Shown one piece after another: positions 1 through 36,537 of a stretch of 38,452 nucleotides of DNA. The notes under the pieces were generated by a model, which ran no database searches, had not been told where the DNA came from, and was given only the letters and a program-made list of their open reading frames with translations. Source of the stretch: a virus (taxonomy: Duplodnaviria; Heunggongvirae; Uroviricota; Caudoviricetes); the IMG/VR virus record IMGVR_UViG_2728369592_000010, positions 1 through 38,452 of that record; one strand, 5' to 3'. Position 1 is the first letter of the stretch, and every line of letters starts with the position of its first letter. The translations under genes and the position numbers were made by a program.

Positions 1-516
1 ATGAAATTTAAAAAATGTCTTCTGCCTGTGGCAATGTTAGCGTCATTCACTCTGGCAGGATGCCAGTCAAATGCTGATGATCATGCCGCCGATGTTTATC
101 AAACCGATCAACTGAATACCAAACAAGAAACTAAAACCGTTAATATTATTTCCATTCTTCCCGCAAAAGTTGCCGTAGACAACTCCCAAAATAAACGAAA
201 CGCACAAGCCTTCGGCGCGCTTATTGGTGCAGTCGCTGGCGGTGTAATCGGCCACAACGTGGGGTCTGGCAGCAATTCCGGAACGACGGCAGGTGCAGTT
301 GGCGGCGGAGCTGTTGGCGCGGCAGCGGGTTCTATGGTGAATGATAAAACCTTAGTGGAAGGTGTTTCTCTAACGTATAAGGAAGGCACCAAAGTGTATA
401 CCTCCACCCAGGTGGGTAAAGAGTGCCAGTTTACGACAGGTTTAGCCGTTGTTATTACCACGACGTATAACGAAACGCGTATTCAGCCAAATACCAAATG
501 TCCTGAAAAGAGCTAA
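1..516 (+). CDS. Glycine-zipper outer-membrane lipoprotein (YcfJ/SlyB-like)
   Basis: Lipobox LAGC after signal peptide; glycine-zipper stretch GALIGAVAGGVIGHNVGSG resembles the YcfJ/17-kDa-antigen family; ATG at position 1. Confidence 0.65.
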   Translation: MKFKKCLLPVAMLASFTLAGCQSNADDHAADVYQTDQLNTKQETKTVNIISILPAKVAVDNSQNKRNAQAFGALIGAVAGGVIGHNVGSGSNSGTTAGAVGGGAVGAAAGSMVNDKTLVEGVSLTYKEGTKVYTSTQVGKECQFTTGLAVVITTTYNETRIQPNTKCPEKS

Positions 517-531
517 TAATCAGGAGGAGTC

Positions 532-1071
532 ATGAAGAAAGTTTTTCTTTGCGCCATCTTAGCCTCCTTTAGCTATCCGGCTATCGCCTCATCATTGCAG
601 GATCAACTCTCGGCTGTCGCAGAAGCGGAACAGCAAGGTAAAAATGAAGAGCAAAGGCAGCATGACGAATGGGTCGCGGAGCGCAACAGGGAAATCCAGC
701 AAGAGAAGCAACGTCGCGCAAACGCCCAGGCCGCGGCTAATAAAAGAGCGGCAACGGCAGCGGCAAATAAGAAAGCTCGTCAGGATAAACTGGACGCCGA
801 AGCCACTGCGGACAAAAAACGCGATCAAAGTTATGAAGATGAGCTACGCAGCTTAGAGATTCAGAAACAAAAACTGGCACTGGCGAAAGAAGAAGCCCGC
901 GTTAAGCGCGAAAACGAATTTATCGATCAGGAACTGAAGCACAAAGCTGCGCAAACCGATGTGGTGCAATCTGAAGCTGACGCAAACAGAAATATGACTG
1001 AAGGCGGTCGCGATCTGATGAAAAGCGTGGGCAAAGCAGAAGAGAACAAATCGGACAGCTGGTTTAATTAA
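532..1071 (+). CDS. Secreted coiled-coil protein, function unknown
   Basis: Strong SD AGGAGG 7 nt upstream; N-terminal signal peptide; remainder charged, K/E/A/Q-rich coiled coil; 16-nt gap to upstream lipoprotein gene suggests an operon. Confidence 0.6.
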   Translation: MKKVFLCAILASFSYPAIASSLQDQLSAVAEAEQQGKNEEQRQHDEWVAERNREIQQEKQRRANAQAAANKRAATAAANKKARQDKLDAEATADKKRDQSYEDELRSLEIQKQKLALAKEEARVKRENEFIDQELKHKAAQTDVVQSEADANRNMTEGGRDLMKSVGKAEENKSDSWFN

Positions 1072-2697: not shown

Positions 2698-3178
2698 CGT
2701 CTTTTCTCCCCGGAATTAACTCGCGTGGATTATCGGAACGGTGATAAAGCCATATACCAATTCGCACAGCGACAATTGACGACACAAATGCGCCAGCAGA
2801 GAAGACGATCCCTTTCTCGAAAGAGTCCTGCGTGATGGTAGGGATCAGGCCGGCTACACCGATAAGGATGGATGCTGTAGGTTTGTAAAAGAGAAGGCCG
2901 CAGAGAAAGCTAAGCATCGACAAGAGTACGCGACGACGAATGGGATACTCTACTGCAGAGGTAACAAAAATAACCGCTCCAGCCAAAGACCCCAAAGCAA
3001 CCTCAGGAGGTGCTCCTGCTATAACCGCCACCAGAGAACTCATGCTAAGCCACTGATTTAAAGACTCACTGGTTATCTGAACTGACATAAAAACCACCGT
3101 TAAATGTGCATATGCCCCACCTAATTTAAGGGGTTCATCATACACAATAAACCACATGTGGTTAAACAGGTAATTCAT
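2684..3178 (-). CDS. Multi-TM membrane protein, putative holin (alternative internal start at Met31 with GGTGG SD)
   Basis: 164 aa with about 4 hydrophobic helices; first gene after the tailspike; no SD before the first ATG but GGTGG precedes an in-frame ATG 90 nt downstream; a seroconversion/flippase-like role cannot be excluded. Confidence 0.5.
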   Translation of the reverse strand: MNYLFNHMWFIVYDEPLKLGGAYAHLTVVFMSVQITSESLNQWLSMSSLVAVIAGAPPEVALGSLAGAVIFVTSAVEYPIRRRVLLSMLSFLCGLLFYKPTASILIGVAGLIPTITQDSFEKGIVFSAGAFVSSIVAVRIGIWLYHRSDNPRELIPGRKDDGNA

Positions 3179-3291
3179 TGTGATACTAATGTTAAACTCA
3201 TTACTGCCGAAAAAGTGTCACTGATTAAAACACGGTAGAGAAATTATTAACGAGTAATTTAGGCATAATTACAATATTTAAGTTATTAATT

Positions 3292-3306
3292 CACTGATTT
3301 AATCAG
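3292..3306. promoter_or_regulatory. Perfect palindrome ACTGAT-TTA-ATCAGT upstream of the lysis cassette, with a related half-site CACTGATTAAAA at 3218-3229
   Basis: Read directly; lies in the 190-bp gap between tailspike stop and first lysis gene. Confidence 0.35.
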
Positions 3307-3326
3307 TAAAAGATAGCTATAACATA

Positions 3327-3345
3327 CCACCTCCCAAGGAGGTGG
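3327..3345 (-). terminator. GC-rich hairpin CCACCTCC-caa-GGAGGTGG downstream of the tailspike gene (weak terminator/attenuator)
   Basis: Perfect 8-bp stem; no clean T-run on the minus strand, so efficiency is uncertain. Confidence 0.35.
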
Positions 3346-3371
3346 TTTAGGAATAACAATAAAATATGTAC

Positions 3372-5387
3372 TTACGCACTTCGTAATAAATGTTTAGACA
3401 TAGCAGCAATACAGAAACAAGATAAGTCAGCGTAATTTACACCGTACATATCCGATTCTTTATCATAAGTAACCAGAGAATAGTCTGTAGGGTTAAGATT
3501 ATATTTCTCCATAATCAGCATTACTTCTTGAGCCATACATCCGAAGTGATACTTATCAGATTCTGCATCTGTCCATTTAAACTTTATCATGCTAATGGCT
3601 AATTCTAGCCCTGCACTATACTCTGCCGTAGATATCTCATACAAATCTTTACATCTACCGTCAGATGTTTGTATTACACCATTAGTTGCAAAGACAGTTT
3701 GCCATCTACGACTAGATTGACCACAAGTTCTTTGATTATCTATCTGGGGGGCAACACTACCATCTATACGCAAATAGTTATCTTCCGCTTGTGCGCCTCC
3801 CATAACACCTTCTAAAAAAGGCAATCCTTTGTGATTATTTACAATGAATTTATTGGAGGTGTCTTCTGATATTCCGGTACCAGCATCTGGACCTATAAAA
3901 ATATTACCATTTCCAGTTGGTAATTTTCTTCCTGCTCTTGCTCCTATCATAACATTCAGGTCACCTGAGGATAGGGAATTGAGAGCATCAACACCAATTG
4001 CTGTATTAAAATTACCTGTGAGAGTCCCAGTGTATGGGTTCTCTGTTGATGATACTCCTCGCAATGCTCCATTACCTATAGCTGTGTTATGATCACCTTG
4101 CTTTAACTCCCTACCAGCTGCATTACCAATAAGGGTATTTCCATTACATTTATTATACCCAAGACGTACACCTTGAGGGTCTGTGTAGATGCCAGTACGC
4201 ATTCCTGCAGAGCGTCCTATTGCAACATTAGCTTCTCCAGAATGGAGTTGCTGCAAAGCTGACATACCAACTGCAACATTGAACCTACCATCCTTACACT
4301 CGTTTAGCGCATCCCTGCCAATACCAATCATGTTATTTCCAGTGGTGGCTTTCTTCAAAGCATTAATACCTATACTGATAATCTCTGTTCCAGAAAATGG
4401 CGACTTATCTGTAAGATCATCTTCTAGAGTATCTCCTGACAAACCACCCACACCAACCACGATTGTGTTAGTGCCGCTAGTTATGTTGCGACCAGAACTT
4501 GGTCCAAGCAAAACCAATTGATTACCTTTACCAGAGTCAGTGTAATTTTTTGCGGCATCATAACCTAAAATAAGGTTGCTATGAGACTGAGCTACATTGG
4601 TAAACGGAATTCGTTCCGCTCCTGTCTCTTTAATTATTTTTCCTGGGCCATAAAATCTTCCATTAATATCTTCCGGCAATAAATACGTGCCATCAGGAAC
4701 ATAAACACCTTGTGGCGAAGCAGATGCCGCGGCAATGAAAGCATCTGTATCATTTGTGACTCCATCACCTTTAGCGCCAAAGTCAAGAACACTGACAGTA
4801 TCCCGCATCTTATCCTGAAACGTTCTATATACCGCGCCTGAACCATACTGAATAAACCAACCAAAACCACCAACAACCCCGGCGATTGCAGCATCGACAT
4901 AATTACACATTGAGCGATTATTTACAGCGTCCTGCTCAAGTGATGGATCTGCAAGGTTAGAAATTCTGTTTTGCTTTGCATCGTAATATTTTGCAAGCAA
5001 AGATGGTTTCATCAATGCACGTCTGAACCACCCAAAACATTGCTGGATCAGCATCGTCAGGTAGTCAAAAGCATCTTCATGCACTTCGGGGAAAAATTTT
5101 CCCTGATTGCGAAGGTCTGTCTCCTGCACTACATCAAGCACACGATCTATCGTAATTCGCCATCCAGCAGCAAGCGGAGACGGAAGAACAACAGAACCGC
5201 CACTATAAGTGCCCGCCCCAGTTACCGTATAACCGGTATCCAGAACCAATTCTGTTACGTTCCCGTTCAGGTCAGACACCTGAACAACCAGGTCGGATTT
5301 TTTGAAAATACGGAAGGTATACGGAAATGATGTCGTAACGCCGTTACCTGTGTATTCGTTGTGGTCAACTTCGGTTGAGACCGTCAT
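3372..5387 (-). CDS. Tailspike / tail fibre with conserved N-terminal particle-binding domain and repeat-rich receptor-binding body
   Basis: N-terminus MTVSTEVDHNEYTGNGVTTSFPYTFRIFKK matches my memory of the epsilon15/phiV10 tailspike head-binding domain; body has repeated N-x-A-I-G-x-x-A motifs; C-terminal about 100 aa may be an intramolecular chaperone; 3' half is AT-rich. Confidence 0.85.
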   Translation of the reverse strand: MTVSTEVDHNEYTGNGVTTSFPYTFRIFKKSDLVVQVSDLNGNVTELVLDTGYTVTGAGTYSGGSVVLPSPLAAGWRITIDRVLDVVQETDLRNQGKFFPEVHEDAFDYLTMLIQQCFGWFRRALMKPSLLAKYYDAKQNRISNLADPSLEQDAVNNRSMCNYVDAAIAGVVGGFGWFIQYGSGAVYRTFQDKMRDTVSVLDFGAKGDGVTNDTDAFIAAASASPQGVYVPDGTYLLPEDINGRFYGPGKIIKETGAERIPFTNVAQSHSNLILGYDAAKNYTDSGKGNQLVLLGPSSGRNITSGTNTIVVGVGGLSGDTLEDDLTDKSPFSGTEIISIGINALKKATTGNNMIGIGRDALNECKDGRFNVAVGMSALQQLHSGEANVAIGRSAGMRTGIYTDPQGVRLGYNKCNGNTLIGNAAGRELKQGDHNTAIGNGALRGVSSTENPYTGTLTGNFNTAIGVDALNSLSSGDLNVMIGARAGRKLPTGNGNIFIGPDAGTGISEDTSNKFIVNNHKGLPFLEGVMGGAQAEDNYLRIDGSVAPQIDNQRTCGQSSRRWQTVFATNGVIQTSDGRCKDLYEISTAEYSAGLELAISMIKFKWTDAESDKYHFGCMAQEVMLIMEKYNLNPTDYSLVTYDKESDMYGVNYADLSCFCIAAMSKHLLRSA

Positions 5388-5490
5388 GTTAAATCTCCAG
5401 ATAGTCGCAGCACCCGTTGCGCCGCATATCTGGTTATTCTATTACCTGAAAAACCATATATGGATAGAAAGGCTGTAAATACGAATAGAT

Positions 5491-5507
5491 ATTACCTTTC
5501 AGGTAAT
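5491..5507. promoter_or_regulatory. Operator-like palindrome ATTACCTTTCAGGTAAT (TTACC-N5-GGTAA family)
   Basis: Perfect inverted repeat; identical core to the site at 22435-22449. Confidence 0.6.
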
Positions 5508-5543: not shown

Positions 5544-5563
5544 TACTGTATAAATATACAGTT
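5544..5563. promoter_or_regulatory. LexA (SOS) box TACTGTATAAATATACAGTT
   Basis: CTGT-N8-ACAG with AT-rich spacer, 18/20 match to the E. coli consensus TACTGTATATATATACAGTA; 5-20 bp upstream of the start of the plus-strand small gene. Confidence 0.75.
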
Positions 5564-5568
5564 ATTGC

Positions 5569-5841
5569 ATGGAGAAGATTAAGATGCAGCAGTATCACTA
5601 TCCACTGGAAGACGGATTTACCGAAAGGATTCACACGCCGGGAGGCGTCAGGTCACTGGTGGAGGGATCGCACTTGATGAAATTACTCCGGGATCTCGAT
5701 AAGGATGGATTTAATGTCGATGGCCCACTTGCCGAACTGACTGCACTGATTAACTACGTCACCAGCTCACAGATGTCTATGCAGGATCTGCAAACACATC
5801 TCGACTATTGTGCCGAACAATTACGAAAACAAACCCGGTAA
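5569..5841 (+). CDS. Small SOS-regulated protein, candidate antirepressor (likely start at ATG 5584 after GGAGAAG)
   Basis: Opposite strand to flanking virion genes, own LexA-box promoter and downstream hairpin; 85-90 aa soluble protein with no family I can assign. Confidence 0.6.
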   Translation: MEKIKMQQYHYPLEDGFTERIHTPGGVRSLVEGSHLMKLLRDLDKDGFNVDGPLAELTALINYVTSSQMSMQDLQTHLDYCAEQLRKQTR

Positions 5842-5848
5842 ATTTAAA

Positions 5849-5877
5849 GGCCGCAAGAGCGGCCTGTGACATGTCAC
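5849..5877. terminator. Bidirectional terminator region: hairpin GGCCGC-aaga-GCGGCC followed by palindrome GTGACATGTCAC and a T-run
   Basis: Read directly; sits between the convergent plus-strand small gene and the minus-strand 98-aa gene. Confidence 0.5.
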
Positions 5878-22344: not shown

Positions 22345-22412
22345 ATCAATGACTCCGTACGCAATTAAATTATTACCAATTTAACCACATATGATTTATT
22401 TATCGTAGACAG

Positions 22413-22450
22413 TTGACATTTAACGCACGAATTATTACCTTTCAGGTAAC
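22413..22450 (+). promoter_or_regulatory. Candidate promoter (-35 TTGACA at 22413-22418) overlapped by operator-like palindrome ATTACCTTTCAGGTAAC (22434-22450)
   Basis: Consensus -35 hexamer on the plus strand about 350 nt upstream of the tRNA; operator covers the expected -10/+1 region. Confidence 0.45.
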
Positions 22451-22771: not shown

Positions 22772-22848
22772 GTGGCATTAGCTCAGTTGGACAGAGCAAC
22801 CGCCTTCTAAGCGGTTGGTCGCAGGTTCGAATCCTGCATGCCACGCCA
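22772..22848 (+). tRNA. tRNA-Arg (anticodon UCU, reads AGA), phage-encoded, with encoded CCA
   Basis: Manually folded cloverleaf: acceptor GTGGCAT/ATGCCAC, D-stem GCTC/GAGC, anticodon stem ACCGC/GCGGT with loop CTTCTAA (TCT at 22806-22808), T-arm GCAGG-TTCGAAT-CCTGC, discriminator G, CCA; similar to but distinct from host argU as I recall it. Confidence 0.85.
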
Positions 22849-23041: not shown

Positions 23042-23920
23042 ATGACCACAAATTACCTTAAAGGTATAATCATGAAAAACTTTAAGGTAATTAGTATGTT
23101 CGAATCGTTCAAAGAGCTGTTTTTATCTACTGCCAATACTGCCGTGCATCGAGCTAAAAACCCTGTGCTTGGTGCTTTTGTTATGTCCTGGTGCGCCTTC
23201 AACTGGAAATCACTTCTTTATCTATTTTTTAGCAAATCAAATATAATAGATAAAATTTCATACATCTCAGATAACAGCACATGGAAAACTGTTATGTTTT
23301 ATCCATGCTTATCTGTAATTACTATCTGCTGCCTATTACCATGGGTAAACAATATCATTAACGTATGGCAAGCAAAGCCTCTTGATAATAATGACTCAAT
23401 CGAAAATCACCGGAAGGCAAGAAAAATACAACGTGAAACACGGCTACAGAGATTGCTGGCTAAAAAAGACATTACTTACGAAAAAGTAAAAACAGGCGCT
23501 GAAAAAAACATTCAAGACATGAAAGAGGAAATAATTCTTTCAAAAGACAGAATGGGACAACTCACATCTGAATTGAAAGAGAGGGAGACAGAACTGCGCG
23601 CAGAACAAGCTCGTATTTTAGAATTATCTAAGGTTATTGATGAAACAACATCTAAACTAGAAAATCTAGAAAAAGCTCACAAAAATTTAAAAAACGAATA
23701 TGAGTCCTATAAGAAAAACATTCCTTTGGCAACAAATAATACAATTGCTAATGGGCTTGTAGGTCTAAAATCATTACAAGACCTTAATGAGTCCGTAAAG
23801 AAACTTGGCGTTACTGGAATTAACAATCCAGAAATCAATACATTATTGAATAATCCTCTAGTAAATATAAATGGTGGTTTAAATTCCACCTATCAAAGAA
23901 AATTAAAAACACAAAAGTAA
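23042..23920 (+). CDS. AT-rich moron: membrane-anchored coiled-coil protein of unknown function (candidate exclusion/abortive-infection effector); probable start at ATG 23096
   Basis: Clearly AT-rich relative to flanks (by eye about 35% vs about 50% GC); opposite strand to terminase and portal; own -10 TATAAT at 23065-23070 overlapped by near-operator TTACCTTAAAGGTAT (23053-23067); two N-terminal TM helices then about 120-aa coiled coil; uses AGA/AGG Arg codons. Confidence 0.75.
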   Translation: MTTNYLKGIIMKNFKVISMFESFKELFLSTANTAVHRAKNPVLGAFVMSWCAFNWKSLLYLFFSKSNIIDKISYISDNSTWKTVMFYPCLSVITICCLLPWVNNIINVWQAKPLDNNDSIENHRKARKIQRETRLQRLLAKKDITYEKVKTGAEKNIQDMKEEIILSKDRMGQLTSELKERETELRAEQARILELSKVIDETTSKLENLEKAHKNLKNEYESYKKNIPLATNNTIANGLVGLKSLQDLNESVKKLGVTGINNPEINTLLNNPLVNINGGLNSTYQRKLKTQK

Positions 23921-23923
23921 AAA

Positions 23924-25393
23924 TCATTCAAATGGGTCATAGTCTGTTATAGCCCTGCCCTGCTGCTGCCGTGGGTCATTAGTTTTCTTGGCTACCGGGA
24001 AAGCAAACGTCAGCAGTAGCGCATCGCCTTTACCCGGCGAACGCCCAAGCCGCTCTTTGATATCTTCCTTCGGTTCGATAACGATTTTACCGTCCACACG
24101 AACTTTGTACTCTGCCGCCGACAGGTCATCCGCTGTTTCCTGGTCATCCAGCATCCCGCCGAGCCTCAGCCATGTCTTGCATGAGTTGAACATCTCCCCG
24201 CGCTTATTGAGCATCTGCGGGTCAGTAGACGCGCCGCCGAACGGAACAAGTTGCCATGTACGACCCCAGCCGTCACCGATTGACTTCAGACCGGTACCGT
24301 AACCGAAGTCGATGAACACCGCGTCAGCCTGATACTGGTCTTCAAAGTCAGCGATACGCTTTGCCATAATCAGATCGTCAGTGGTCTTGTTGCCGGTCCA
24401 CAGCACCTTACTGTGCAGCCCCTGCCGCAGGTATATCACCGCGTCATCAACGCCTGAGTATGCCGGGTCAACGCCGATTATCACCGGAGCATGTGCAACC
24501 TGCGCAGCGGTGACCACCCGTTTCATTGCCTCGTCAGTAAGTCCGGTAGGGATAAACTGCAATTCAGATGCATCCGGGAATATGCCGCGCACACGGATTT
24601 TAACGAAGTCGCTGTCTTCCCCGTAGTCATCAACCCATTTCTGCAACTGCTGTTTGTTAGTGCCTTCCACCGTCCGGCTGTCAATCTGCGCAGTTTTCCA
24701 GCGGTGTTTATATTTGCGGAAACATTCGCGGAAACGCCCGGTGTTACGTGTAGGGTTTCCGAACGCCACCCAGATAATCTCAGTGTCTTCGTCCGTTAGC
24801 GCCCCCTCAGCAACTTCCCACACCAGATCCGCAATGTTCGACGCTTCATCGAATACCACGATGATGCGTTTGCGCTCGTTGTGTAGTCCGGCGAATGCCT
24901 CAGTGTTGTGCTCAGACCAGGGGATTGCGTCAGCTCGCCACCGCTTGTCGTGCCCAGGATCATTGCTGTACATCGCGGTAGCGGTACAGGTAAACCAGTC
25001 TTTCGTGATAGCAAGGTTCGACCACTTGATAATTTCCGGCCAGGTCTTCGTTCGTAGCTGGTTGTCGGTGTTGGCGGTCACCACGACCTTACAATCCTCG
25101 CAAGTGGACATGCCCCAGTTGATCAGCATTGAGATGAATGCGGATTTACCAATACCGTGACCAGAAGCGCGTGCCAGCATAAGCGGCTGATAGCGCGTCT
25201 CTGGATTCTGCAGGTGATCACGTATCTCTCGGAACGCATCAGCCTGCCACTGACGTGGGCCGGTAGCATGTGCCAGTTCAGTCCCCTCTTCCCCCCACGG
25301 GAACGCATAGAGGGCATAGCCAAGCGGATCGTGAGTGAACCCTGCAATATCCTCGATCAACTGCTCTTCAGGAGATAACGCTGTATCTGTCAC
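23924..25393 (-). CDS. Terminase large subunit
   Basis: 489 aa; N-terminal ATPase features and C-terminal nuclease region; ATGA overlap with small-subunit stop. Confidence 0.9.
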   Translation of the reverse strand: MTDTALSPEEQLIEDIAGFTHDPLGYALYAFPWGEEGTELAHATGPRQWQADAFREIRDHLQNPETRYQPLMLARASGHGIGKSAFISMLINWGMSTCEDCKVVVTANTDNQLRTKTWPEIIKWSNLAITKDWFTCTATAMYSNDPGHDKRWRADAIPWSEHNTEAFAGLHNERKRIIVVFDEASNIADLVWEVAEGALTDEDTEIIWVAFGNPTRNTGRFRECFRKYKHRWKTAQIDSRTVEGTNKQQLQKWVDDYGEDSDFVKIRVRGIFPDASELQFIPTGLTDEAMKRVVTAAQVAHAPVIIGVDPAYSGVDDAVIYLRQGLHSKVLWTGNKTTDDLIMAKRIADFEDQYQADAVFIDFGYGTGLKSIGDGWGRTWQLVPFGGASTDPQMLNKRGEMFNSCKTWLRLGGMLDDQETADDLSAAEYKVRVDGKIVIEPKEDIKERLGRSPGKGDALLLTFAFPVAKKTNDPRQQQGRAITDYDPFE

Positions 25394-25986
25394 TGATTAC
25401 CATCCTGACGTTCTTTGAGTCGCTTCCTGGCTGCTGCTATGCGATCAGCAATTGTCACATTCACATTAACATCCAGACGTTCTTTGAACGCGTTGACATC
25501 AACATGCTTACCAATCAGCTCAAGGTTCTTCACCTTGTCAGGCCATTTAATTTTTTTGAGGATTGTCTCTATCGAATCCTCGTTCATGTTCATGATGGTC
25601 GATGACAGATCAAAGCCACTAAGCGTAGTGCGCCAGATTTTCGGCCACTCACGGATTGGTTTAAGGCTCCCATCGTCGTTGAGGATGTCGATCACGTCCA
25701 TCTGGTCGATCTCCACCAGGCGCATGAGAACGTAATCAGCACTGACGCGCATTCGTTTGTTGCGCTCCTCCATCAACTCGGCAATCCGTTTTTGAATGCG
25801 TTCATCGCGCATCATGACACTGGCTTTAACTGCCGCTGTATTTGGGGAGAATCCTGCGTTAATCGCTGCCTGAGTCTGGTTTTCAGGCGTTTTGATGTAT
25901 GACTGGCAATAAGCCTCCTGCATTGCTGTTAGTGGCTTAAATTGCGTTGATTTGCGTTTATAGGTTTTAGGTTCAGCAGGCATCAT
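25390..25986 (-). CDS. Terminase small subunit (start set at MMPAEP; ORF-track start at 26064 adds a low-complexity extension without SD)
   Basis: Motif AAINAGFSPNTAAVKASVMMRDERIQKRIAE is typical of small terminase DNA-binding domains; GGTGG before the internal ATGs. Confidence 0.75.
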   Translation of the reverse strand: MMPAEPKTYKRKSTQFKPLTAMQEAYCQSYIKTPENQTQAAINAGFSPNTAAVKASVMMRDERIQKRIAELMEERNKRMRVSADYVLMRLVEIDQMDVIDILNDDGSLKPIREWPKIWRTTLSGFDLSSTIMNMNEDSIETILKKIKWPDKVKNLELIGKHVDVNAFKERLDVNVNVTIADRIAAARKRLKERQDGNQ

Positions 25987-25993
25987 AACCACC

Positions 25994-26025
25994 GTGGTAA
26001 TAGTTACCGTTGTGGTAATAGTACC
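25994..26025. repeat. Two direct copies of an everted GGTAA/TTACC element (GTGGTAATAGTTACC and GTGGTAATAGTACC) upstream of the terminase small subunit
   Basis: Read directly; half-sites are the same as the operator family but in everted arrangement with 3-bp spacer. Confidence 0.4.
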
Positions 26026-26096
26026 ATGCAAAATAAAGCCGCCATAGTTGGCGGCAGTATTCAAAACCCATCAAATTCATCATGCATAATCTACTC

Positions 26097-26108
26097 GTGA
26101 CATGTCAC
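26097..26108. repeat. 12-bp perfect palindrome GTGACATGTCAC (second copy at 5866-5877)
   Basis: Identical 12-mers at two loci, each overlapping the TGA stop of a small minus-strand gene at the same palindrome positions. Confidence 0.5.
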
Positions 26109-26443
26109 ACTATTAATTTCGTTTCATGCCAGCCTTTAGTCACCCAGCATTGCGAGTCACCATTACACGGGCATGAATTAACTGGAACTCTCTCGCCGCA
26201 CTTACCGCAACATTTTCTGCTGATCGATTTTATACGCCCGCGCACGCGTGCATCATCCTGGCGGATCAGTAACGCTATATACTCACCAAATTCGTAAGGC
26301 GCACGCCCGGGGCGACGCGTGGCACAGTTACGCTCCAGCATTTCAATTTCCTGAGCATCAAGCACAATTTCCAGCTTACGCACACCAGATGCAGCTTGTC
26401 TGGCTCTCTGAGCGGCTTTGCGCTCTGCTGCTGATTTAGCCAT
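26105..26443 (-). CDS. Small Cys-rich protein (putative zinc-ribbon regulator), last gene before the packaging operon
   Basis: 112 aa; basic N-terminal helix then C-terminal CCGKCG...CPCNGDSQC cysteine cluster. Confidence 0.6.
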   Translation of the reverse strand: MAKSAAERKAAQRARQAASGVRKLEIVLDAQEIEMLERNCATRRPGRAPYEFGEYIALLIRQDDARVRGRIKSISRKCCGKCGERVPVNSCPCNGDSQCWVTKGWHETKLIV

Positions 26444-29596: not shown

Positions 29597-29673
29597 TTAC
29601 CCCTTAGGTAATTAAAAACCACATAAGACACGAAATCAATAGATTTTAGAATATTTTATTACCTCAAAGGTAA
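29597..29673 (-). promoter_or_regulatory. Promoter-operator cassette: operator TTACCTCAAAGGTAA (29659-29673), -35 TTGATT (29634-29639, minus), 17-bp spacer, -10 TTTAAT, operator TTACCCCTTAGGTAA (29597-29611) overlapping -10/+1 and the SD
   Basis: Same geometry as the plus-strand cassette at 32702-32778. Confidence 0.6.
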
Positions 29674-29710: not shown

Positions 29711-30511
29711 TTACTTGATAAATCCTGACGCCTTTCCCCGCCTGTATTCCTCCATCAGCCACTGCGCCGGTGTTATTCCCCCAAGGGTGGCGGCGTTAGG
29801 CATGCACCCGAAACTTCGCCCTGGTGGATGGTAAACGTCTCTCCCTGTGTCCGGAGGCGTACTCATGGGTTCTGGCTTTGCCTGTATGCTGATCACCGGA
29901 TCGGGTATCTGCTGTCCGGAAGCCACCTTTTTCGCCCAATCATCGAGCAGCCTGCGCGCGTGTTTCTCAACCTCAATCTCGCTAAGCTGGCGCTGATACA
30001 TTGCACGGCGGGTATCACATACGACCCAGTACATAACCGGATGCCGCCACGGGAATCTTTCGGGACCACCAGGATATAAACTTTTTTCCTTGCTGTACCG
30101 GTGAAACTCCGCCATCACATCGTCAATGGTGACGCCAAGAACCATCTTGCTGTCTTTGCACCACTTGATAAATTGCCCTGGCGACGGCCAGAACGGAGAT
30201 TCACTGGCGCGGGCGTGGCGCATACCAGCAGAAACCTGTTCACGGGTTCGGATCCCCCCTTCGGCAAACGCAGCAATCCACTGCTGTTTTGCAGCGACTT
30301 CCTGCTCTGGCGTCTTCAGGTTGGTTACCACTGCCGCCGGAAACAGCTGTTTCAGCTGTTTGAAAAGGGCATCAACAAGCCTCTCTGCTGACATGTTCAC
30401 CACATTGTCATTGTTGACGTACTGATGCTCATAACCTGACATGCGAGAAAGGGCTTCTCCGTCACGGTTTTGTATCGCGGTAAAAACGTTGTTCACAAGA
30501 AATCCTCCCAC
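29711..30511 (-). CDS. Replication protein P-like helicase loader
   Basis: REQVSAGMRHARASESPFWPSPGQFIKWCKD aligns with lambda P MEQVNAGMRVARRQNRPFLPSPGQFVAWCRE (from memory). Confidence 0.85.
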   Translation of the reverse strand: MGGFLVNNVFTAIQNRDGEALSRMSGYEHQYVNNDNVVNMSAERLVDALFKQLKQLFPAAVVTNLKTPEQEVAAKQQWIAAFAEGGIRTREQVSAGMRHARASESPFWPSPGQFIKWCKDSKMVLGVTIDDVMAEFHRYSKEKSLYPGGPERFPWRHPVMYWVVCDTRRAMYQRQLSEIEVEKHARRLLDDWAKKVASGQQIPDPVISIQAKPEPMSTPPDTGRDVYHPPGRSFGCMPNAATLGGITPAQWLMEEYRRGKASGFIK

Positions 30512-31308
30512 GCTTCAGGGCTGTTCCAGTGCGGAACGTTGTTATCAGGTAATGTTGATTGCTTCTGTCTGCTAATCTGCAGCCGCCTTGCCAGCTTCTG
30601 CTCCCACTGTGCCTGATGGTATGCCTTACCCTCAGCCATCCAGTAAATTCTGAACTCTGCAAGTTCCTGTGCTGTTGGCAGACTGTCCAGGTAGATCCCC
30701 TGCAATGAGCTTTTCCGAAGAAAGTCATCTGATGGCTGCCATTGTTCATGCATGACAAATTTGCCTAATTGCCCTGGCCCACCAGGAGGAACAAAGTTAT
30801 TCATCACGGCGTTGTTTGCGCCGGGGTCATGAGGCACAGAATCCCCGCTTTTTGTCCTGCTCTCCCTCTCTTGGTTAAATGACTGGTTATATGACTGGTT
30901 CTGGATCCCGTTTTTGGGATCATTCAACATCCCGTTTTTGGGATCATTCAACATCCCGTTTTTGGGTATATTCCCGTTTTCGGTAACATTACCGTTTTCG
31001 GGTTCATTACCCCCTTCCCGGTTGCCTTTAATGTTCCCGTTTTTGGTTATATTAAGAGAGAAAACCCGCACTCTTTTCGTCGCTCCCTTTCTCTCTCCGG
31101 TATCTGAAATAAGCCCCATTTTCATGAGCGATATAAGTCCGGCCTGCACGGTTTTTTTATTCAGGCAAGTGTCTTTAACGAGGCGTTCTATGCTGGGGTA
31201 GCAGAGGTTATATTCATCGGCTCTGTCAGCCATCGAGAGCAGTATGAGCTTTAATGACGAGCTACCTGGATCTGTCTCCCAGGCCCAATCTGTTGCATGT
31301 CTGCTCAT
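30493..31308 (-). CDS. Replication initiator (lambda O-like) with N-terminal winged-helix and internal iteron-encoded repeat
   Basis: N-terminal HTH-like region, central NGN/KNG peptide repeats encoded by DNA iterons, C-terminal region upstream of the P-like gene as in lambda O-P. Confidence 0.8.
   Translation of the reverse strand: MSRHATDWAWETDPGSSSLKLILLSMADRADEYNLCYPSIERLVKDTCLNKKTVQAGLISLMKMGLISDTGERKGATKRVRVFSLNITKNGNIKGNREGGNEPENGNVTENGNIPKNGMLNDPKNGMLNDPKNGIQNQSYNQSFNQERESRTKSGDSVPHDPGANNAVMNNFVPPGGPGQLGKFVMHEQWQPSDDFLRKSSLQGIYLDSLPTAQELAEFRIYWMAEGKAYHQAQWEQKLARRLQISRQKQSTLPDNNVPHWNSPEAWEDFL
30905..31053. repeat. Origin-like iteron array inside the O-like gene: two perfect 24-bp copies ATCCCGTTTTTGGGATCATTCAAC plus about five degenerate CCGTTTT(T)GG units
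   Basis: Read directly; each unit has an ATCCC...GGGAT inverted core, as in lambda ori iterons. Confidence 0.7.
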
Positions 31309-31558: not shown

Positions 31559-31619
31559 ATTTTGTGCTGACACAAAAAAAAGATCAACCAGATTTGGTTT
31601 TTTATTACCTTTGAGGTGC
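31559..31619 (-). promoter_or_regulatory. Candidate promoter for the replication operon: half-degenerate operator TTACCTTTGAGGTGC (31605-31619), -35 TTGATC, palindrome TTTTGTG-ctga-CACAAAA (31560-31577) over the spacer/-10
   Basis: Read directly on the minus strand. Confidence 0.4.
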
Positions 31620-31674: not shown

Positions 31675-31905
31675 TCATGAGTAGAAGAAGTATGCCAGTT
31701 CTGCTTTTGAGCGCAACCATTGTCTTGATTTACAGGCTTTAAAAAGCCCATTCATCAATACTTTACCTGGCATTTTGCGCTTACCTGTTAAGTGAGTCTG
31801 GATATAGTGACTCGTCGTTCCGGCTTCCTGTGCGAAGGCTTCACGCTCATCCGGAGTAAGTGCAAGCCAGTGCTTTTTGAAATCGAAATGTCCGTTATCG
31901 CTCAT
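31675..31905 (-). CDS. Cro-like small HTH regulator, first gene of the lytic-direction operon
   Basis: 76 aa with HTH-like segment EREAFAQEAGTTSHYIQTHLTGKR; divergent from the repressor gene across an operator cluster. Confidence 0.6.
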   Translation of the reverse strand: MSDNGHFDFKKHWLALTPDEREAFAQEAGTTSHYIQTHLTGKRKMPGKVLMNGLFKACKSRQWLRSKAELAYFFYS

Positions 31906-31941: not shown

Positions 31942-32004
31942 TCACCCATAAGGTAACAAAAATCAAGGATAGTTACCTATGGGGTGCATTTACCTGTTGG
32001 GTAA
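31942..32004. promoter_or_regulatory. Tripartite operator cluster between Cro-like and repressor genes: TCACCCATAAGGTAA (31942-31956), TTACCTATGGGGTGC (31973-31987), TTACCTGTTGGGTAA (31990-32004)
   Basis: Three TTACC-N5-GGTAA-family sites in the 154-bp divergent intergenic region. Confidence 0.6.
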
Positions 32005-32059
32005 TATTGCTTTAAATTGAATCATCTACTGATTCATATATGAGGCGATTTTCCAGAAA

Positions 32060-32644
32060 ATGAAAAGTATCCAGGACGTCCGCAGGCAAAATCTCAACGA
32101 CTTGATCGACCGTGAATTCAATGGTGTTCAGACGCGGATGGCAGAAAAACTTGGAACTCAGGCAAATCTGGTAAACCGCTGGGCTCTTGGCAAGAAGGTT
32201 ATCGGCGACCAGGTTGCGCGAAAAATTGAAGCTGCCGCCAATAAACCCCGTAACTGGCTTGATATCGATCGCTCGCTTTCTCAGGAAGGTTTTCAGCCTG
32301 TCGGCCCAAGCGACATTGGTCAGCTAGCGGCTCACAACCTGGAACGCTGGATGAGCGAAAGCCGCGACCTTTCAACACAGGGAAAACTTCACCGCGCATC
32401 CGGCGTCGCCCAGGTGACAATCAGCCGCCTGTTAAACAATGAGGTCAGCGTTTCCATTTCCACCCTGGAGAATGTTGCATCCGCATTCGGGCGTCACGGA
32501 TATGAACTACTGATTCACCCGCACGACCCTGCGACTATCAACTATGACCGCTCACGCTACGCATTGTTACCCGAAACCGAGAAAGCAAAGATCGAAAGTT
32601 ACATTGAATTTGTCATCAACCAGAACGAAAAAAGCAAACAATAA
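32060..32644 (+). CDS. Immunity repressor candidate with two tandem XRE-type HTH domains and no recognisable S24 autocleavage domain
   Basis: HTH-like segments at about residues 20-65 and 110-150; no Ala-Gly cleavage site or Ser/Lys peptidase motifs seen; divergent from the Cro-like gene. Confidence 0.7.
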   Translation: MKSIQDVRRQNLNDLIDREFNGVQTRMAEKLGTQANLVNRWALGKKVIGDQVARKIEAAANKPRNWLDIDRSLSQEGFQPVGPSDIGQLAAHNLERWMSESRDLSTQGKLHRASGVAQVTISRLLNNEVSVSISTLENVASAFGRHGYELLIHPHDPATINYDRSRYALLPETEKAKIESYIEFVINQNEKSKQ

Positions 32645-32701
32645 AACTATAGTTTTCAGTAAGTAAGCCGCCTCATGGCGGCTTTTTTATTGCCAGATAG
32701 A

Positions 32702-32778
32702 TTACCTTACGGGTAATTTTTTTAACTCATATCTATTGACACCAAACCAAATAAGCATAATTATTACCCCAACGGTAA
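32702..32778 (+). promoter_or_regulatory. Early-left promoter-operator cassette: operator TTACCTTACGGGTAA (32702-32716), -35 TTGACA (32736-32741), 17-bp spacer, -10 AATTAT, operator TTACCCCAACGGTAA (32764-32778)
   Basis: Read directly; geometry mirrors the minus-strand cassette at 29597-29673. Confidence 0.6.
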
Positions 32779-35594: not shown

Positions 35595-35894
35595 GTGAGA
35601 AAGTTAAGCCGACTTGAAAAATATCACATGAATAAGGTTTCAATGCGCAGTCCGTCAAAGATTGTCGCCGTTACTCCTGCGGCGATAGAGATCGAAAAAC
35701 GCGCGATTGAAAGAGAGAAAAAAGGGCAGTTCCGCATTGCCGCTCACCTTTGGCTTCAGTGTATGGATGTTGCTTCTGGTGATGTTGAGCGTGCAAGGAT
35801 CGCGGTTCGCAGGGACCAATGTATCACAAAAGGTAACGGCCTTCGCCGTGGAGACTATAGCGGTATAGGATGTTGCGGGGTGGTTTATGACTAA
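35595..35894 (+). CDS. Small regulator-like protein (possibly PerC-like), GTG start
   Basis: 99-aa ORF with SD GAGGG; weak resemblance to prophage PerC-family activators. Confidence 0.45.
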   Translation: MRKLSRLEKYHMNKVSMRSPSKIVAVTPAAIEIEKRAIEREKKGQFRIAAHLWLQCMDVASGDVERARIAVRRDQCITKGNGLRRGDYSGIGCCGVVYD

Positions 35895-36537
35895 GAAATA
35901 CACACTAATCTATGCAGATCCACCCTGGGTATACCGGGACAAAGCCGCAGATGGTAATCGCGGTGCCAGTTTTAAATATCCGGTTATGAGTGTGATGGAT
36001 ATCTGCCGCCTTCCTGTGTGGGATTTGGCCGATGAAAACTGTCTGTTGGCCATGTGGTGGGTGCCAACACAACCACTCGAAGCGCTAAAAGTTGTTGAAG
36101 CCTGGGGATTCCGTCTGATGACCATGAAGGGCTTCACGTGGATAAAATGTGGTAGTCGACAACCAGATAAACTGGTTATGGGTATGGGACACATGACTCG
36201 CGCCAATAGTGAAGATTGCCTGTTTGCAGTAAAGGGAAAACTACCTCCACGCATTAATGCAGGGATCGTTCAGTCATTTACCGCACCGCGGCTTGAGCAT
36301 TCAAGAAAACCAGATGTCGTTCGTGAAAAACTTGTGCAATTGTTAGGCGATGTTTCTCGCATTGAACTGTTCGCCCGCCAGACGTCTCATGGCTTCGATG
36401 TTTGGGGTAATCAGTGCGAAGACCCGGCAGTGCAACTACACCCTGGATACGCGTTGGATATTGGCGGATTAACAAATGCATTCAGCAATGCTCCGGTGTC
36501 ACCAATAGACAACCAGGGGCGGGAGCGTGCAGCATGA
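35887..36537 (+). CDS. MT-A70 family DNA N6-adenine methyltransferase
   Basis: Catalytic DPPW motif in [10 protein letters not shown] near the N-terminus. Confidence 0.85.

Follow-up and report, generated by a model that had tools for sequence, protein, structure and literature searches.

Dispersed palindromes in a phiV10/epsilon15-like phage as the predicted operators of a single antirepressor-controlled repressor

In the database records of phage epsilon15 (AY150271.2 and NC_004775.2), seven ATTACC-N5-GGTAAT sites are marked "protein_bind: repressor"; three of them precede gp37, and the others precede terS, gp3, the tail fibre gene and the nin region. The Rep protein of SPC32H has been reported to bind palindromic DNA as a tetramer (PMC9638917) and the antirepressor Ant to break that tetramer (PMC9986798), and over-expression of the ZX5 repressor lowered endolysin and holin transcripts by >99.9% in a paper that defines no operators (PMC9782041). 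Neither the motif with its repressor assignment, which the epsilon15 annotation already supplies, nor the mechanism of Rep and Ant, the subject of structural studies, is new. The phiV10-type records that we examined carry no operator annotation, and a full-text literature search returned nothing relevant on the motif or on the epsilon15 repressor sites. Lambda repressor acts at two early promoters only. With P1 C1, and with mycobacteriophage L5 gp71 and its "stoperators", one repressor silences many units directly from many dispersed sites; the P1 C1 and L5 sites are asymmetric, and the L5 stoperators are orientation-dependent and lie within transcribed regions.

The DNA analysed here, called the window below, is the whole 38,452-nucleotide stretch of IMG/VR record IMGVR_UViG_2728369592_000010, and its source is a temperate podovirus of the phiV10/epsilon15-like group (Uetakevirus). 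An earlier note on this sequence had listed eleven TTACC-N5-GGTAA palindromes at as many intergenic promoter regions. All eleven are present, two of them (31605 and 31973) being weak, but they fall in 7 regions, so the regions had been over-counted; the list had also missed a pair just upstream of terS, at 26004 (exact) and 25986. The corrected total is 13 sites in 8 intergenic regions, terminase pair included. Bit scores in the following list of predicted operators and their surroundings come from a position weight matrix built from five other genomes alone; matches of at least 12 bits in the window are counted as strong.

5492-5506: operator O_C, TTACCTTTCAGGTAA (17-mer ATTACC..GGTAAT), between the tailspike gene and ant; exact, 26.8 bits, conserved in six genomes.
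5546-5561: LexA box, CTGTATAAATATACAG, perfect, just upstream of ant.
5584-5841, plus strand: ant, antirepressor gene; the reading frame opens at 5569 and homologues start at the ATG at 5584.
22435-22449: operator O_B, with the leftward head/portal operon on one side and the rightward tRNA-Arg/moron island on the other; exact, 22.3 bits, conserved in six genomes.
22772-22848, plus strand: tRNA-Arg.
23053-23067: operator-like site O_M, TTACCTTAAAGGTAT; one mismatch (GGTAT), 19.5 bits.
25986-26000: weak operator O_A2, over the ribosome-binding site and start codon of the minus-strand small terminase gene; one mismatch, 8.0 bits.
26004-26018: operator O_A1, 18 bp from O_A2; exact, 21.8 bits, conserved in five genomes.
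26038-26055, minus strand: terminator-like hairpin between a regulator-like gene (26105-26443) and the terminase operators.
29597-29611: operator O_I proximal, its centre falling at about +1 of the promoter-like site that faces leftward into the DUF1064/nin-type operon; exact, 22.0 bits.
29611-29639, minus strand: promoter-like site P_I, TTGATT (29639-29634), 17-nt spacer, TTTAAT (29616-29611); consensus match only.
29659-29673: operator O_I distal, 62 bp from the proximal site (about -62); exact, 27.7 bits.
31559-31587, minus strand: promoter-like site P_H, TTGATC, 17-nt spacer, CAAAAT, before the replication genes.
31605-31619: weak operator O_H, GCACC-N5-GGTAA on the minus strand; two mismatches, 8.5 bits.
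31675-31905, minus strand: cro-like gene (epsilon15 gp39 family), divergent from rep.
31942-31956: operator O_G3 (TCACC variant); one mismatch, 15.2 bits.
31973-31987: weak operator O_G2, 17 bp from O_G1; two mismatches, 5.6 bits.
31990-32004: operator O_G1, nearest rep; exact, 22.1 bits, half-sites invariant.
32060-32644, plus strand: rep, prophage repressor, with an N-terminal HTH and a C-terminal domain homologous to the SPC32H Rep tetramerisation/Ant-binding domain.
32665-32684, plus strand: rep terminator.
32702-32716: operator O_F distal, at about -62 of P_F; exact, 22.8 bits.
32736-32764, plus strand: promoter-like site P_F, TTGACA, 17-nt spacer, AATTAT, before the rightward recombination (recET) operon.
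32764-32778: operator O_F proximal, 62 bp from the distal site, centred at about +1; exact, 20.7 bits.

The eight exact copies of TTACC-N5-GGTAA compare with 0.03 expected from dinucleotide shuffles of the whole window; with up to one mismatch there are 11 against 0.73 expected, and TYACC-N5-GGTRA occurs 9 times against 0.07. The inverted arrangement is enriched at a spacing of five only (8 copies; other spacings from 0 to 15 give 0-1 each), and everted or direct TTACC arrangements occur 0-1 times, apart from those made by adjacent sites. At the matrix threshold there are 10 matches in the window, whereas shuffles give a mean of 0.13 and a maximum of 1. All 10 are non-coding, although non-coding DNA makes up 7.1% of the window, and the best match within coding sequence scores 7.7 bits, which is chance level; motif frequency is thus not equal in shuffled or coding sequence, and the proposal that the sites avoid coding sequence stands. 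The three weak sites (31605, 25986 and 31973, at 5.6-8.5 bits) are not significant by score alone, and both two-mismatch sites carry GGTGC. Motif density is highest around rep, yet the family is not confined to the immunity region, again as had been proposed: strong sites lie up to 26 kb from rep, at 5492, 22435, 23053, 26004 and 29597/29659.

The sites keep the same relative positions in nine related genomes from six host genera. A six-genome scan, with seven intergenic regions aligned in 5-6 genomes, found them syntenic in phiV10, epsilon15, SPC32H, Tyrion and BUCT711, and they are also syntenic in Cronobacter, Serratia and food-metagenome prophages, where TTACC-N5-GGTAA ranks first in an unbiased palindrome count. 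Across the nine genomes half-sites are invariant and spacers free. The same contrast appears among 80 near-identical prophage loci (99-100% identical, drawn from a viral-contig scan for distant relatives), in which 3/80 half-site positions vary against 21/40 spacer positions (p=1e-9) and 88/454 other intergenic positions (p=1.7e-4). Even the weak sites at 31605 and 31973 keep ACC...GGTAA in 6/6 aligned genomes, the former as invariant ACC..GGTAAT and the latter with its population variation confined to the spacer; at 25986 the overlap with the terS ribosome-binding site and start codon confounds any reading of conservation. Host flanks that we examined hold no motif, except for one site adjoining int. 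The motif pattern is real and under selection, and a stem that is invariant rather than co-varying, around a free loop, is the signature of sequence-specific recognition by a protein.

Compared with epsilon15, the window has the same ATTACC-N5-GGTAAT at the same positions, upstream of terS, gp3 and the tail fibre gene/ant, downstream of rep and in the nin region. Counterparts of annotated epsilon15 sites are O_A1 (12-27), O_I distal (35906-35922), O_F distal (32616-32632) and O_F proximal (32554-32570). The sites between rep and gp39 and the proximal nin site are unmarked in the epsilon15 record, but are clear both here and in epsilon15 itself. Conversely, the third downstream site of the epsilon15 left operon and the epsilon15-type site before the lysis cassette are missing in the phage studied here. 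The apparatus shared with epsilon15 and SPC32H extends to orthologous Rep, Ant and Cro-like proteins and to a LexA box adjoining ant, while Rep is only 43% identical overall (54% in the N-terminal domain, 36% in the remainder).

The operator sites overlap or bracket promoter-like hexamers. At P_F and P_I the layout is common to six genomes and runs terminator, distal operator, -35, and a -10 overlapping the proximal operator; O_I distal directly follows the replication-operon terminator. The core sequences are invariant in the six genomes, as CTATTGAC at P_F (10/12 consensus positions), CTATTGAT at P_I and GGTTGATCTTTTTT at P_H, about 60 bp upstream of which lies O_H, just past the cro-like gene terminator. 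O_G3 sits inside the cro-like promoter spacer, after an invariant TTGATT at 31966-31961, and the right half of O_M overlaps the TATAAT of a promoter-like ATGACC-17-TATAAT before the plus-strand moron (23072-23920); the homologous moron of BUCT711 and L088 is preceded by an equivalent site. Across nine genomes, neighbouring sites are 62/63 bp apart in 15 cases and 17/18 bp apart in 10. We call these promoters "promoter-like" because they are sigma-70 consensus matches, and such matches are no commoner in operator regions than in shuffles; AT-rich operator flanks resemble -10 hexamers and may inflate the apparent "-10 overlap". No convincing sigma-70 promoter was found between the terminator and the terS start codon, where a roadblock or promoter occlusion is a candidate role for the terminase pair, or on the tRNA side of O_B, where the TTGACA at 22413 is just 11 nt from AATTAT. 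As a whole, the promoter geometry fits repression.

By its sequence, Rep is an orthologue of SPC32H/epsilon15 Rep. Residues 1-190 match PDB 5D50 chain A (E 3.5e-42), the protein also matches the SPC32H Rep C-terminal domain (5D4Z, E 3.6e-20), and it is 99.5% identical to the ZX5 repressor. Pfam detects HTH_3 and only HTH-type domains; the same search finds an S24 peptidase/autocleavage domain absent and gives no family match beyond generic HTH domains that would bear on the comparison with P1 C1 and L5. Ant is 88% identical to SPC32H Ant and matches 5D50 chain E (E 4.4e-47), and the CTGT..ACAG arms of the LexA box are invariant in six genomes. The recognition-helix segment of Rep, NL[VI][NS]RW, is kept in 120/120 family members examined. 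A protein search with the Rep N-terminal domain only returned fragments only, and in a search for covariation of helix and half-site the three most divergent prophages still carried TTACC-N5-GGTAA, so that no specificity variant was found. A more distant comparison is offered by the Pseudomonas siphovirus PseuP_224, whose cI has an N-terminal domain 39% identical to that of Rep. It shares the TTACC half-site and a terminator-operator-promoter-operator layout downstream of the repressor gene, but its spacer is N4 (TTACC-N4-GGTAA), its repressor C-terminus is of the S24 type, and its sites (4 in 43 kb) are in the immunity region only. These observations fit a half-site that follows the Rep-type N-terminal domain family.

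The arrangement around rep is lambda-like, with divergent repressor and cro-like genes, three operators between them and a second set at the other early promoter. The half-sites (ATTACC/ATCACC here, ATCACC in lambda) look related, and the spacer is 5 bp in ATTACC-N5-GGTAAT against 3 bp in lambda ATCACC-N3-GGTGAT; the earlier note had drawn this parallel, and its arithmetic of a spacing 2 bp wider is right, but the likeness goes no further than analogy, the C-terminal half of the repressor being different. Rep differs from lambda repressor as well in being without an S24 autocleavage domain and in its predicted inactivation by an antirepressor, and the predicted operators here also stand at replication, nin, terminase, head, moron and tailspike units. 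Against P1 C1 and L5, the sites of this phage are palindromes that lie exclusively between genes, most of them at promoters; only the terminase pair, which follows a terminator and has no clear promoter, is stoperator-like.

Taken together, the data argue that the palindromes are operators of tetrameric Rep, which would act as the direct silencer of each lytic transcription unit, a reading to which we give a probability of roughly 85%. We infer that Rep is the binder from the epsilon15 database annotation, from homology and from association. The two half-sites of each (A)TTACC-N5-GGTAA(T), one helical turn apart, would be read by a pair of N-terminal HTH domains; because a Rep tetramer has two such pairs, it could hold two operators at once, either abutting (17-18 bp, as with O_G1/O_G2 and O_A1/O_A2) or 62 bp apart and bracketing P_F or P_I. 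In the lysogen, about 13 sites spread over 8 intergenic regions would carry Rep, and every lytic unit would be silenced on its own. The units concerned are the cro-like gene, the replication and terminase genes, the nin-type operon, the head operon with its divergent tRNA side, the moron, the tailspike/ant region and the rightward recombination operon. Induction would start when DNA damage removes LexA from the box at 5546-5561 and Ant is made, and would end with Ant dismantling the Rep tetramer, so that all operators are freed together. Between rep and the cro-like gene, the sites are probably bound by the Cro-like protein too. The proposal that one predicted DNA-binding protein, repressor and/or Cro-like, controls many operons is supported by synteny, invariant half-sites with free spacers, promoter overlap, the epsilon15 "protein_bind: repressor" annotation and the SPC32H Rep and Ant homologues.

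The choice of Rep over the Cro-like protein (31675-31905) deserves scrutiny, since the dispersed sites could be mainly Cro-like targets, with Rep limited to the immunity region. Lambdoid phages have operators common to Cro and CI. The Cro-like protein matches phrog_35 "transcriptional repressor" (E 8.7e-13), its HTH-like segment AGTTSHYIQTHLT is invariant in six genomes, and it co-occurs with Rep and with the motif in every genome examined, the Pseudomonas phage PseuP_224 included; PDB and NCBIfam searches gave no matches for it or for the regulator-like product of 26105-26443, and its profile comparison with Rep was not significant. We nevertheless consider this unlikely. Switching off the head, terminase and tailspike operons in the lytic phase would be self-defeating, the depositors of epsilon15 gave the sites to the repressor, and paired sites suit a tetramer with two DNA-binding units (PMC9638917). 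A weak further point comes from the Serratia prophage, in which the half-site is unchanged and the Cro-like helix (AKYIMAH vs SHYIQTH) diverges more than that of Rep (NLISRW vs NLVNRW).

It is very unlikely that the sites bind another factor, whether a phage middle/late regulator or a host protein common to Enterobacterales. Candidates exist in the regulator-like product of 26105-26443 and a PerC-like activator at 35595-35894; sites B and C are 60-75 bp upstream of late-operon -10-like hexamers, a typical activator position, and other conserved motifs in the same regions show that further regulators act there. However, the motif falls within or across the core of P_F, P_I and the promoter of the cro-like gene, which fits repression and covers early as well as late units; it is also densest around rep. 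The related repressor N-terminal domain of the Pseudomonas phage goes with the same half-site in the immunity region only, and the host flanks, apart from the site at int, are without the motif. The idea that the palindromes work as hairpins in RNA or DNA, serving as processing sites or weak terminators, or that they reflect chance or base composition, is scarcely credible. Each could fold into a 5-nt loop on a stem of 5-6 bp and several adjoin terminators, but the stems are short and AT-rich, the sites are symmetric in regions read in either direction, and no compensatory changes occur in the nine genomes, the invariant half-sites with variable spacers in relatives and population loci ruling out an RNA hairpin, and shuffle enrichment, non-coding matrix matches and N5 specificity ruling out chance and composition.

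A further suggestion, which we advance tentatively and regard as rather doubtful, is that its tetramers clamp promoters via fixed 62-bp operator pairs and that operator specificity is frozen across the Rep family. A conserved "terminator, operator, promoter, operator" cassette would be reused at several units, with operators at about -62 and +1. A described parallel is pLS20 Rco. This HTH regulator forms tetramers, loops DNA between sites ~75 bp apart and has a tetramerisation fold that is reported to be common to SPC32H Rep (PMC9986798); it resembles the present case in that paired operators flank a promoter at a distance of some tens of bp from each other (62 bp here) and differs in being without sequence homology to Rep. 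Across phages of Escherichia, Salmonella, Enterobacter, Klebsiella, Cronobacter and Serratia, TTACC-N5-GGTAA stays the same with Rep identity down to 43% or lower, and a possible reason for frozen specificity is that a single protein has to recognise about a dozen sites. The literature accessible to us contains no report of looping by Rep for any epsilon15-like phage, and no description of such promoter clamping or of frozen operator specificity.

The result mainly confirms and slightly extends known annotation. Of 5,426 complete E. coli genomes, 540 carry the immunity region, and relatives have Salmonella, Klebsiella, Enterobacter and Cronobacter as hosts; this prevalence and host range give the operator map some practical value. 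The complete map predicts which promoters would be silent in lysogens and provides mutation targets for the engineering of phiV10-type reporter and therapeutic phages. The design it suggests is unlike that of lambda, with one antirepressor-controlled tetrameric repressor at every lytic unit. Lambdoid phages have many immunity types; if operator specificity is indeed frozen, all of the prophages listed here could, unlike these, be mutually immune.

The palindrome TTACC-N5-GGTAA occurs exactly eight times in the 38,452-bp window, where dinucleotide-preserving shuffles lead one to expect 0.03; allowing up to one mismatch gives 11 copies against 0.73, and the slightly degenerate form TYACC-N5-GGTRA gives 9 against 0.07. 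Enrichment is limited to inverted repeats spaced by 5 bp (8 copies vs 0-1 at each other spacing). To avoid circularity, a 21-bp weight matrix was trained on 47 exact sites from five other genomes, with the window excluded. In the window it scores 10 matches at 12 bits or more (shuffles average 0.13 and never exceed 1), and 10/10 lie in non-coding DNA, which is 7.1% of the window; within coding sequence, the top score is 7.7 bits, which is chance level. An earlier note, made from the sequence alone, had listed eleven palindromes, all of them present at the coordinates given, and placed none in coding sequence in the regions it covered; both observations hold, as does the expectation that the motif exceeds its frequency in shuffled sequence. 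Seven of the eleven are exact, whereas 23053 and 31942 (sites are named by their start) carry one mismatch and 31605 and 31973 two. The sites had been assigned to eleven intergenic promoter regions, but they occupy 7, and the list lacked exact site 26004 and its one-mismatch neighbor 25986, both before the small terminase gene; with this pair there are 13 sites in 8 regions. The scan of relatives that the note proposed places the motif at the same relative locations in six genomes (the window, phiV10, epsilon15, SPC32H, Enterobacter phage Tyrion, and Klebsiella phage BUCT711).

The window is a temperate podovirus of the phiV10 kind, in the epsilon15-like genus Uetakevirus. It shares ~97% identity with phiV10, phiv142-3, ZX5 and others, and its orientation is opposite to that of the phiV10 record. 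Among 5,426 complete E. coli genomes, 540 carry its immunity region, as do hundreds of IMG/VR contigs. The motif is already known from the epsilon15 record (GenBank AY150271.2 and RefSeq NC_004775.2), which carries seven "protein_bind: repressor (lysogeny)" features, ATTACC-N5-GGTAAT. Three of these follow the repressor gene; the others precede the small terminase gene and gp3 (head operon), separate gp19 from the tail fibre gene, or stand where the replication genes give way to the nin-type genes. The window has its sites at matching places. The phiV10 record annotates terminators only. The feature is most likely the operator set of an epsilon15/SPC32H-type Rep-Ant immunity system, with agreement on every point that could be tested. 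Lambda CI/Cro is similar in how the immunity region works but differs in that the window Rep has no S24 domain and the operators extend beyond the immunity region, while P1 C1 and L5 gp71 share only the dispersal of sites. The Pseudomonas siphovirus PseuP_224 has a cI whose N-terminal domain is 39% identical to that of Rep and whose C-terminus is S24-type; its operators have the same TTACC half-site but a 4-bp spacer, and 4/4 sites lie in the immunity region in a lambda-like layout, with none elsewhere in 43 kb. From this contrast, the TTACC half-site belongs to this repressor N-terminal domain family, whereas genome-wide dispersal and N5 spacing are features of epsilon15-like phages. Divergent from the PseuP_224 cI, at about 3680-3905 (minus strand) of its record (L089), is an unannotated ORF with a Cro-like product, MRTKNPQLLEWLK...TGTTRAYLRMIAYGHK..., whose HTH segment, read by eye, resembles the epsilon15 gp39 family; the repressor/Cro-like gene pair and the half-site seem to travel together beyond Uetakevirus.

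Regulatory genes and LexA box
32060-32644, plus strand: Rep, prophage repressor, 194 aa, by homology to SPC32H Rep
31675-31905, minus strand: Cro-like protein, match to phrog_35 "transcriptional repressor"
5569-5841, plus strand, probable start 5584: ant, antirepressor, by homology to SPC32H Ant
5546-5561: LexA box CTGTATAAATATACAG, directly upstream of ant, perfect, kept in 6/6 genomes

We regard Rep as the putative binder of the palindromes, an assignment with good indirect support and a probability of about 0.85. SPC32H Rep (PDB 5D50 chain A) aligns to its whole length (E 3.5e-42), at 54% identity over the N-terminal 70 residues and 36% over the remainder, and a match to 5D4Z covers its C-terminal half. 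Its Pfam hits are to HTH-type domains, with none to an S24 peptidase domain. NLVNRW, the segment at the recognition helix, is unchanged across the six genomes and almost unchanged across 120 family members. Over-expression of the ZX5 repressor, which is 99.5% identical to the window Rep, lowers endolysin and holin transcripts by 99.97-99.99% (PMC9782041). One competitor is the Cro-like protein, which has an invariant helix of its own, AGTTSHYIQTHLT, and is found with Rep everywhere, so that sequence alone cannot tell which sites it shares; as main binder of the dispersed sites it would be compatible with the sequence evidence, but it would make little biological sense for late operons and would be at odds with how epsilon15 is annotated. 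Binding by some other regulator or by a host factor is unlikely, given that the sites overlap the core promoters of early units and that the half-site travels with the repressor N-terminal domain family. RNA hairpins and chance are excluded by the statistics and by the invariance of the arms.

That invariance is seen in alignments of single intergenic regions, where the half-sites stand unchanged within variable surroundings, and in 80 near-identical prophage loci, where 3/80 half-site positions vary, against 21/40 spacer positions (Fisher p = 1e-9) and 88/454 other intergenic positions (p = 1.7e-4). Invariant arms around a free spacer argue for sequence-specific recognition by a protein and against an RNA hairpin. 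At the weak sites 31605 and 31973, ACC...GGTAA is kept in 6/6 genomes, and these are therefore probably real low-affinity sites. The Rep protein also led to three more distant prophages, from Cronobacter, Serratia, and a food metagenome. When every 5-Nx-5 palindrome in them is counted without bias, TTACC-N5-GGTAA comes first, at 7-8 exact copies in 16-20 kb and again at matching positions.

Probable operators and promoter-like sites
32736-32741 (TTGACA) and 32759-32764 (AATTAT): P_F, candidate promoter of the rightward recombination operon; operators 32702 and 32764
29639-29634 (TTGATT) and 29616-29611 (TTTAAT): P_I, candidate promoter of the leftward nin-type operon; operators 29659 and 29597
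31587-31559 (TTGATC-17-CAAAAT): replication-gene promoter-like site; weak operator 31605 at about -60
31966-31961: invariant TTGATT between rep and the cro-like gene, then operator 31942 within the promoter spacer
26055-26038: terminator at the terminase start, then directly two sites 18 bp apart
22435: operator between the head operon and the divergently oriented tRNA-Arg (22772-22848, plus strand)
23053: operator overlapping the TATAAT of a promoter-like site for the plus-strand moron
5492: operator 40 bp from the ant LexA box and ~58 bp upstream of a conserved TAGAAT before the tailspike gene

The promoter calls are consensus matches, which are no commoner here than in shuffles. The same cassette is present at two transcription units in 6/6 genomes, in the order terminator, distal operator, ~24 bp, CTATTGAY (-35-like), 17-nt spacer, -10-like hexamer, RBS, and ATG, with the 3' end of the -10-like hexamer overlapping the proximal operator. 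At P_F and P_I, 62 bp separates the operator centers, which fall at about -62 and +1; the replication-gene site has only a half-site at the proximal position, and on the rep side of the rep/cro-like intergenic region operators 31973 and 31990 are 17 bp apart. Across nine genomes, neighbor spacing is quantized at 62/63 bp (15 cases), 17/18 bp (10), 47/48 bp (5), 75-77 bp (4), and 30 bp (2). The second terminase site, 25986, is a candidate: it is conserved, yet it overlaps the RBS and start codon. Because no convincing promoter was found between the terminator and that start codon, the pair may act as a roadblock. The longest small terminase ORF (25390-26064, minus strand, TTG start 26064) takes in the terminator and both operators and corresponds to the phiV10 RefSeq annotation (L001 41-715); alignment with epsilon15 and Tyrion places the true start at ATG 25986 or 25983. 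A site equivalent to 23053 precedes the homologous moron gene in two other genomes. An operator-like TTACCYTAAAGGTAT also lies ~45 bp upstream of int in phiV10 (L001 26870) and three relatives' records (L002 26882, L003 26960, L004 28568), a position that in the window falls just past the right end. In phiV10 and SPC32H its 15-mer is identical to site 23053; the site may put int under Rep control as well, or it may be part of attP.

Other elements and cargo
3150-3158, 5452-5462, 22383-22393, and 29617-29625, minus strand: (C)ATATGTGGTT / CATATATGGTT element at the lysis, tailspike, head/gp3, and nin starts
1-516, plus strand: glycine-zipper/TraT-like protein, cargo ORF
532-1071, plus strand: DUF5384 protein, cargo ORF

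The (C)ATATGTGGTT / CATATATGGTT element sits just upstream of the -10-like region at four leftward operon starts, and six genomes keep it at three of these (gp3, tailspike, and nin). Before gp3 and the tailspike gene, a lone GGTAAT half-site comes after it. It might be part of middle/late promoters or a site for an activator. A perfect palindrome, GTGACATGTCAC, occurs at 5866-5877, by the terminator after the last virion gene, and at 26097-26108, at the end of a regulator-like gene just before the terminase terminator; its positions are conserved in 9/9 genomes, and it also follows terL in relatives. The latter copy overlaps a promoter-like GTGACA-18-CATGAT with a terminator immediately after, a layout resembling lambda PR'-tR' with Q upstream, so by analogy 26105-26443 might encode a late antiterminator or regulator. 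The two cargo ORFs lie past the lysis cassette (1-1071, plus strand), and phiV10 lacks them; of the relatives listed, TL-2011b is the only one whose alignment begins at window position 1. The O-antigen acetylase gene found between the tailspike and lysis genes in phiV10 is missing at 3137-3372 of the window, as is the operator that precedes the lysis cassette in relatives; all that the window retains of this operator is a lone ATTACC half-site, adjoining CATGTGGTT and TATGAT. The gene for the replication initiator (30493-31308, minus strand) contains iteron-like tandem repeats in three sets at 30872-31011 (24 bp x 2.6 with 100% match, 18 bp x 3.1, and 12 bp x 2.4). They probably mark the replication origin, which would then lie within the initiator gene as it does in lambda O.

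Ant shares 88% identity with its SPC32H counterpart (62-98% across the genus), and 5D50 chain E is a match at E 4.4e-47. The linker and C-terminal domain of Rep, which Ant reportedly binds, are 36% identical to those of SPC32H, against 88% for Ant; either only a small conserved patch forms the interface, or the histories of the two modules differ. Kim and Ryu are said to have placed ant of SPC32H under LexA control in 2013, and the LexA box is consistent with this. SPC32H Rep is described as a tetramer on palindromic DNA in which each DNA-binding pair draws on different dimers, dimeric Rep as a weak DNA binder, and tetrameric Ant as breaking the Rep tetramer (PMC9638917); both tetramerisation and Ant binding are assigned to the Rep C-terminal domain, which has a fold in common with the DNA-looping regulator Rco of pLS20 (PMC9986798). 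Rep tetramers would bind the palindromes via pairs of N-terminal HTH domains, and one tetramer, with two pairs, could occupy either two sites that abut or two that flank a promoter at a distance of 62 bp; we infer such bridging or looping from the spacing and the tetramer literature. In the lysogen each lytic unit would be repressed directly; upon DNA damage LexA would leave the ant promoter, and Ant would dismantle the Rep tetramer, freeing all sites together.

Our additions are refinements of something already described: a corrected, complete site list for a phiV10-type genome, the rep/cro-like intergenic sites and the proximal nin site omitted from the epsilon15 record, the 62-bp bracket design, and population-level evidence of selection. 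We put forward only tentatively, and think rather doubtful, a combined reading in which promoters are clamped by operator pairs at a fixed 62-bp distance and the specificity of the operators has been frozen in phages of six host genera; if true, such frozen specificity would lead to broad cross-immunity.
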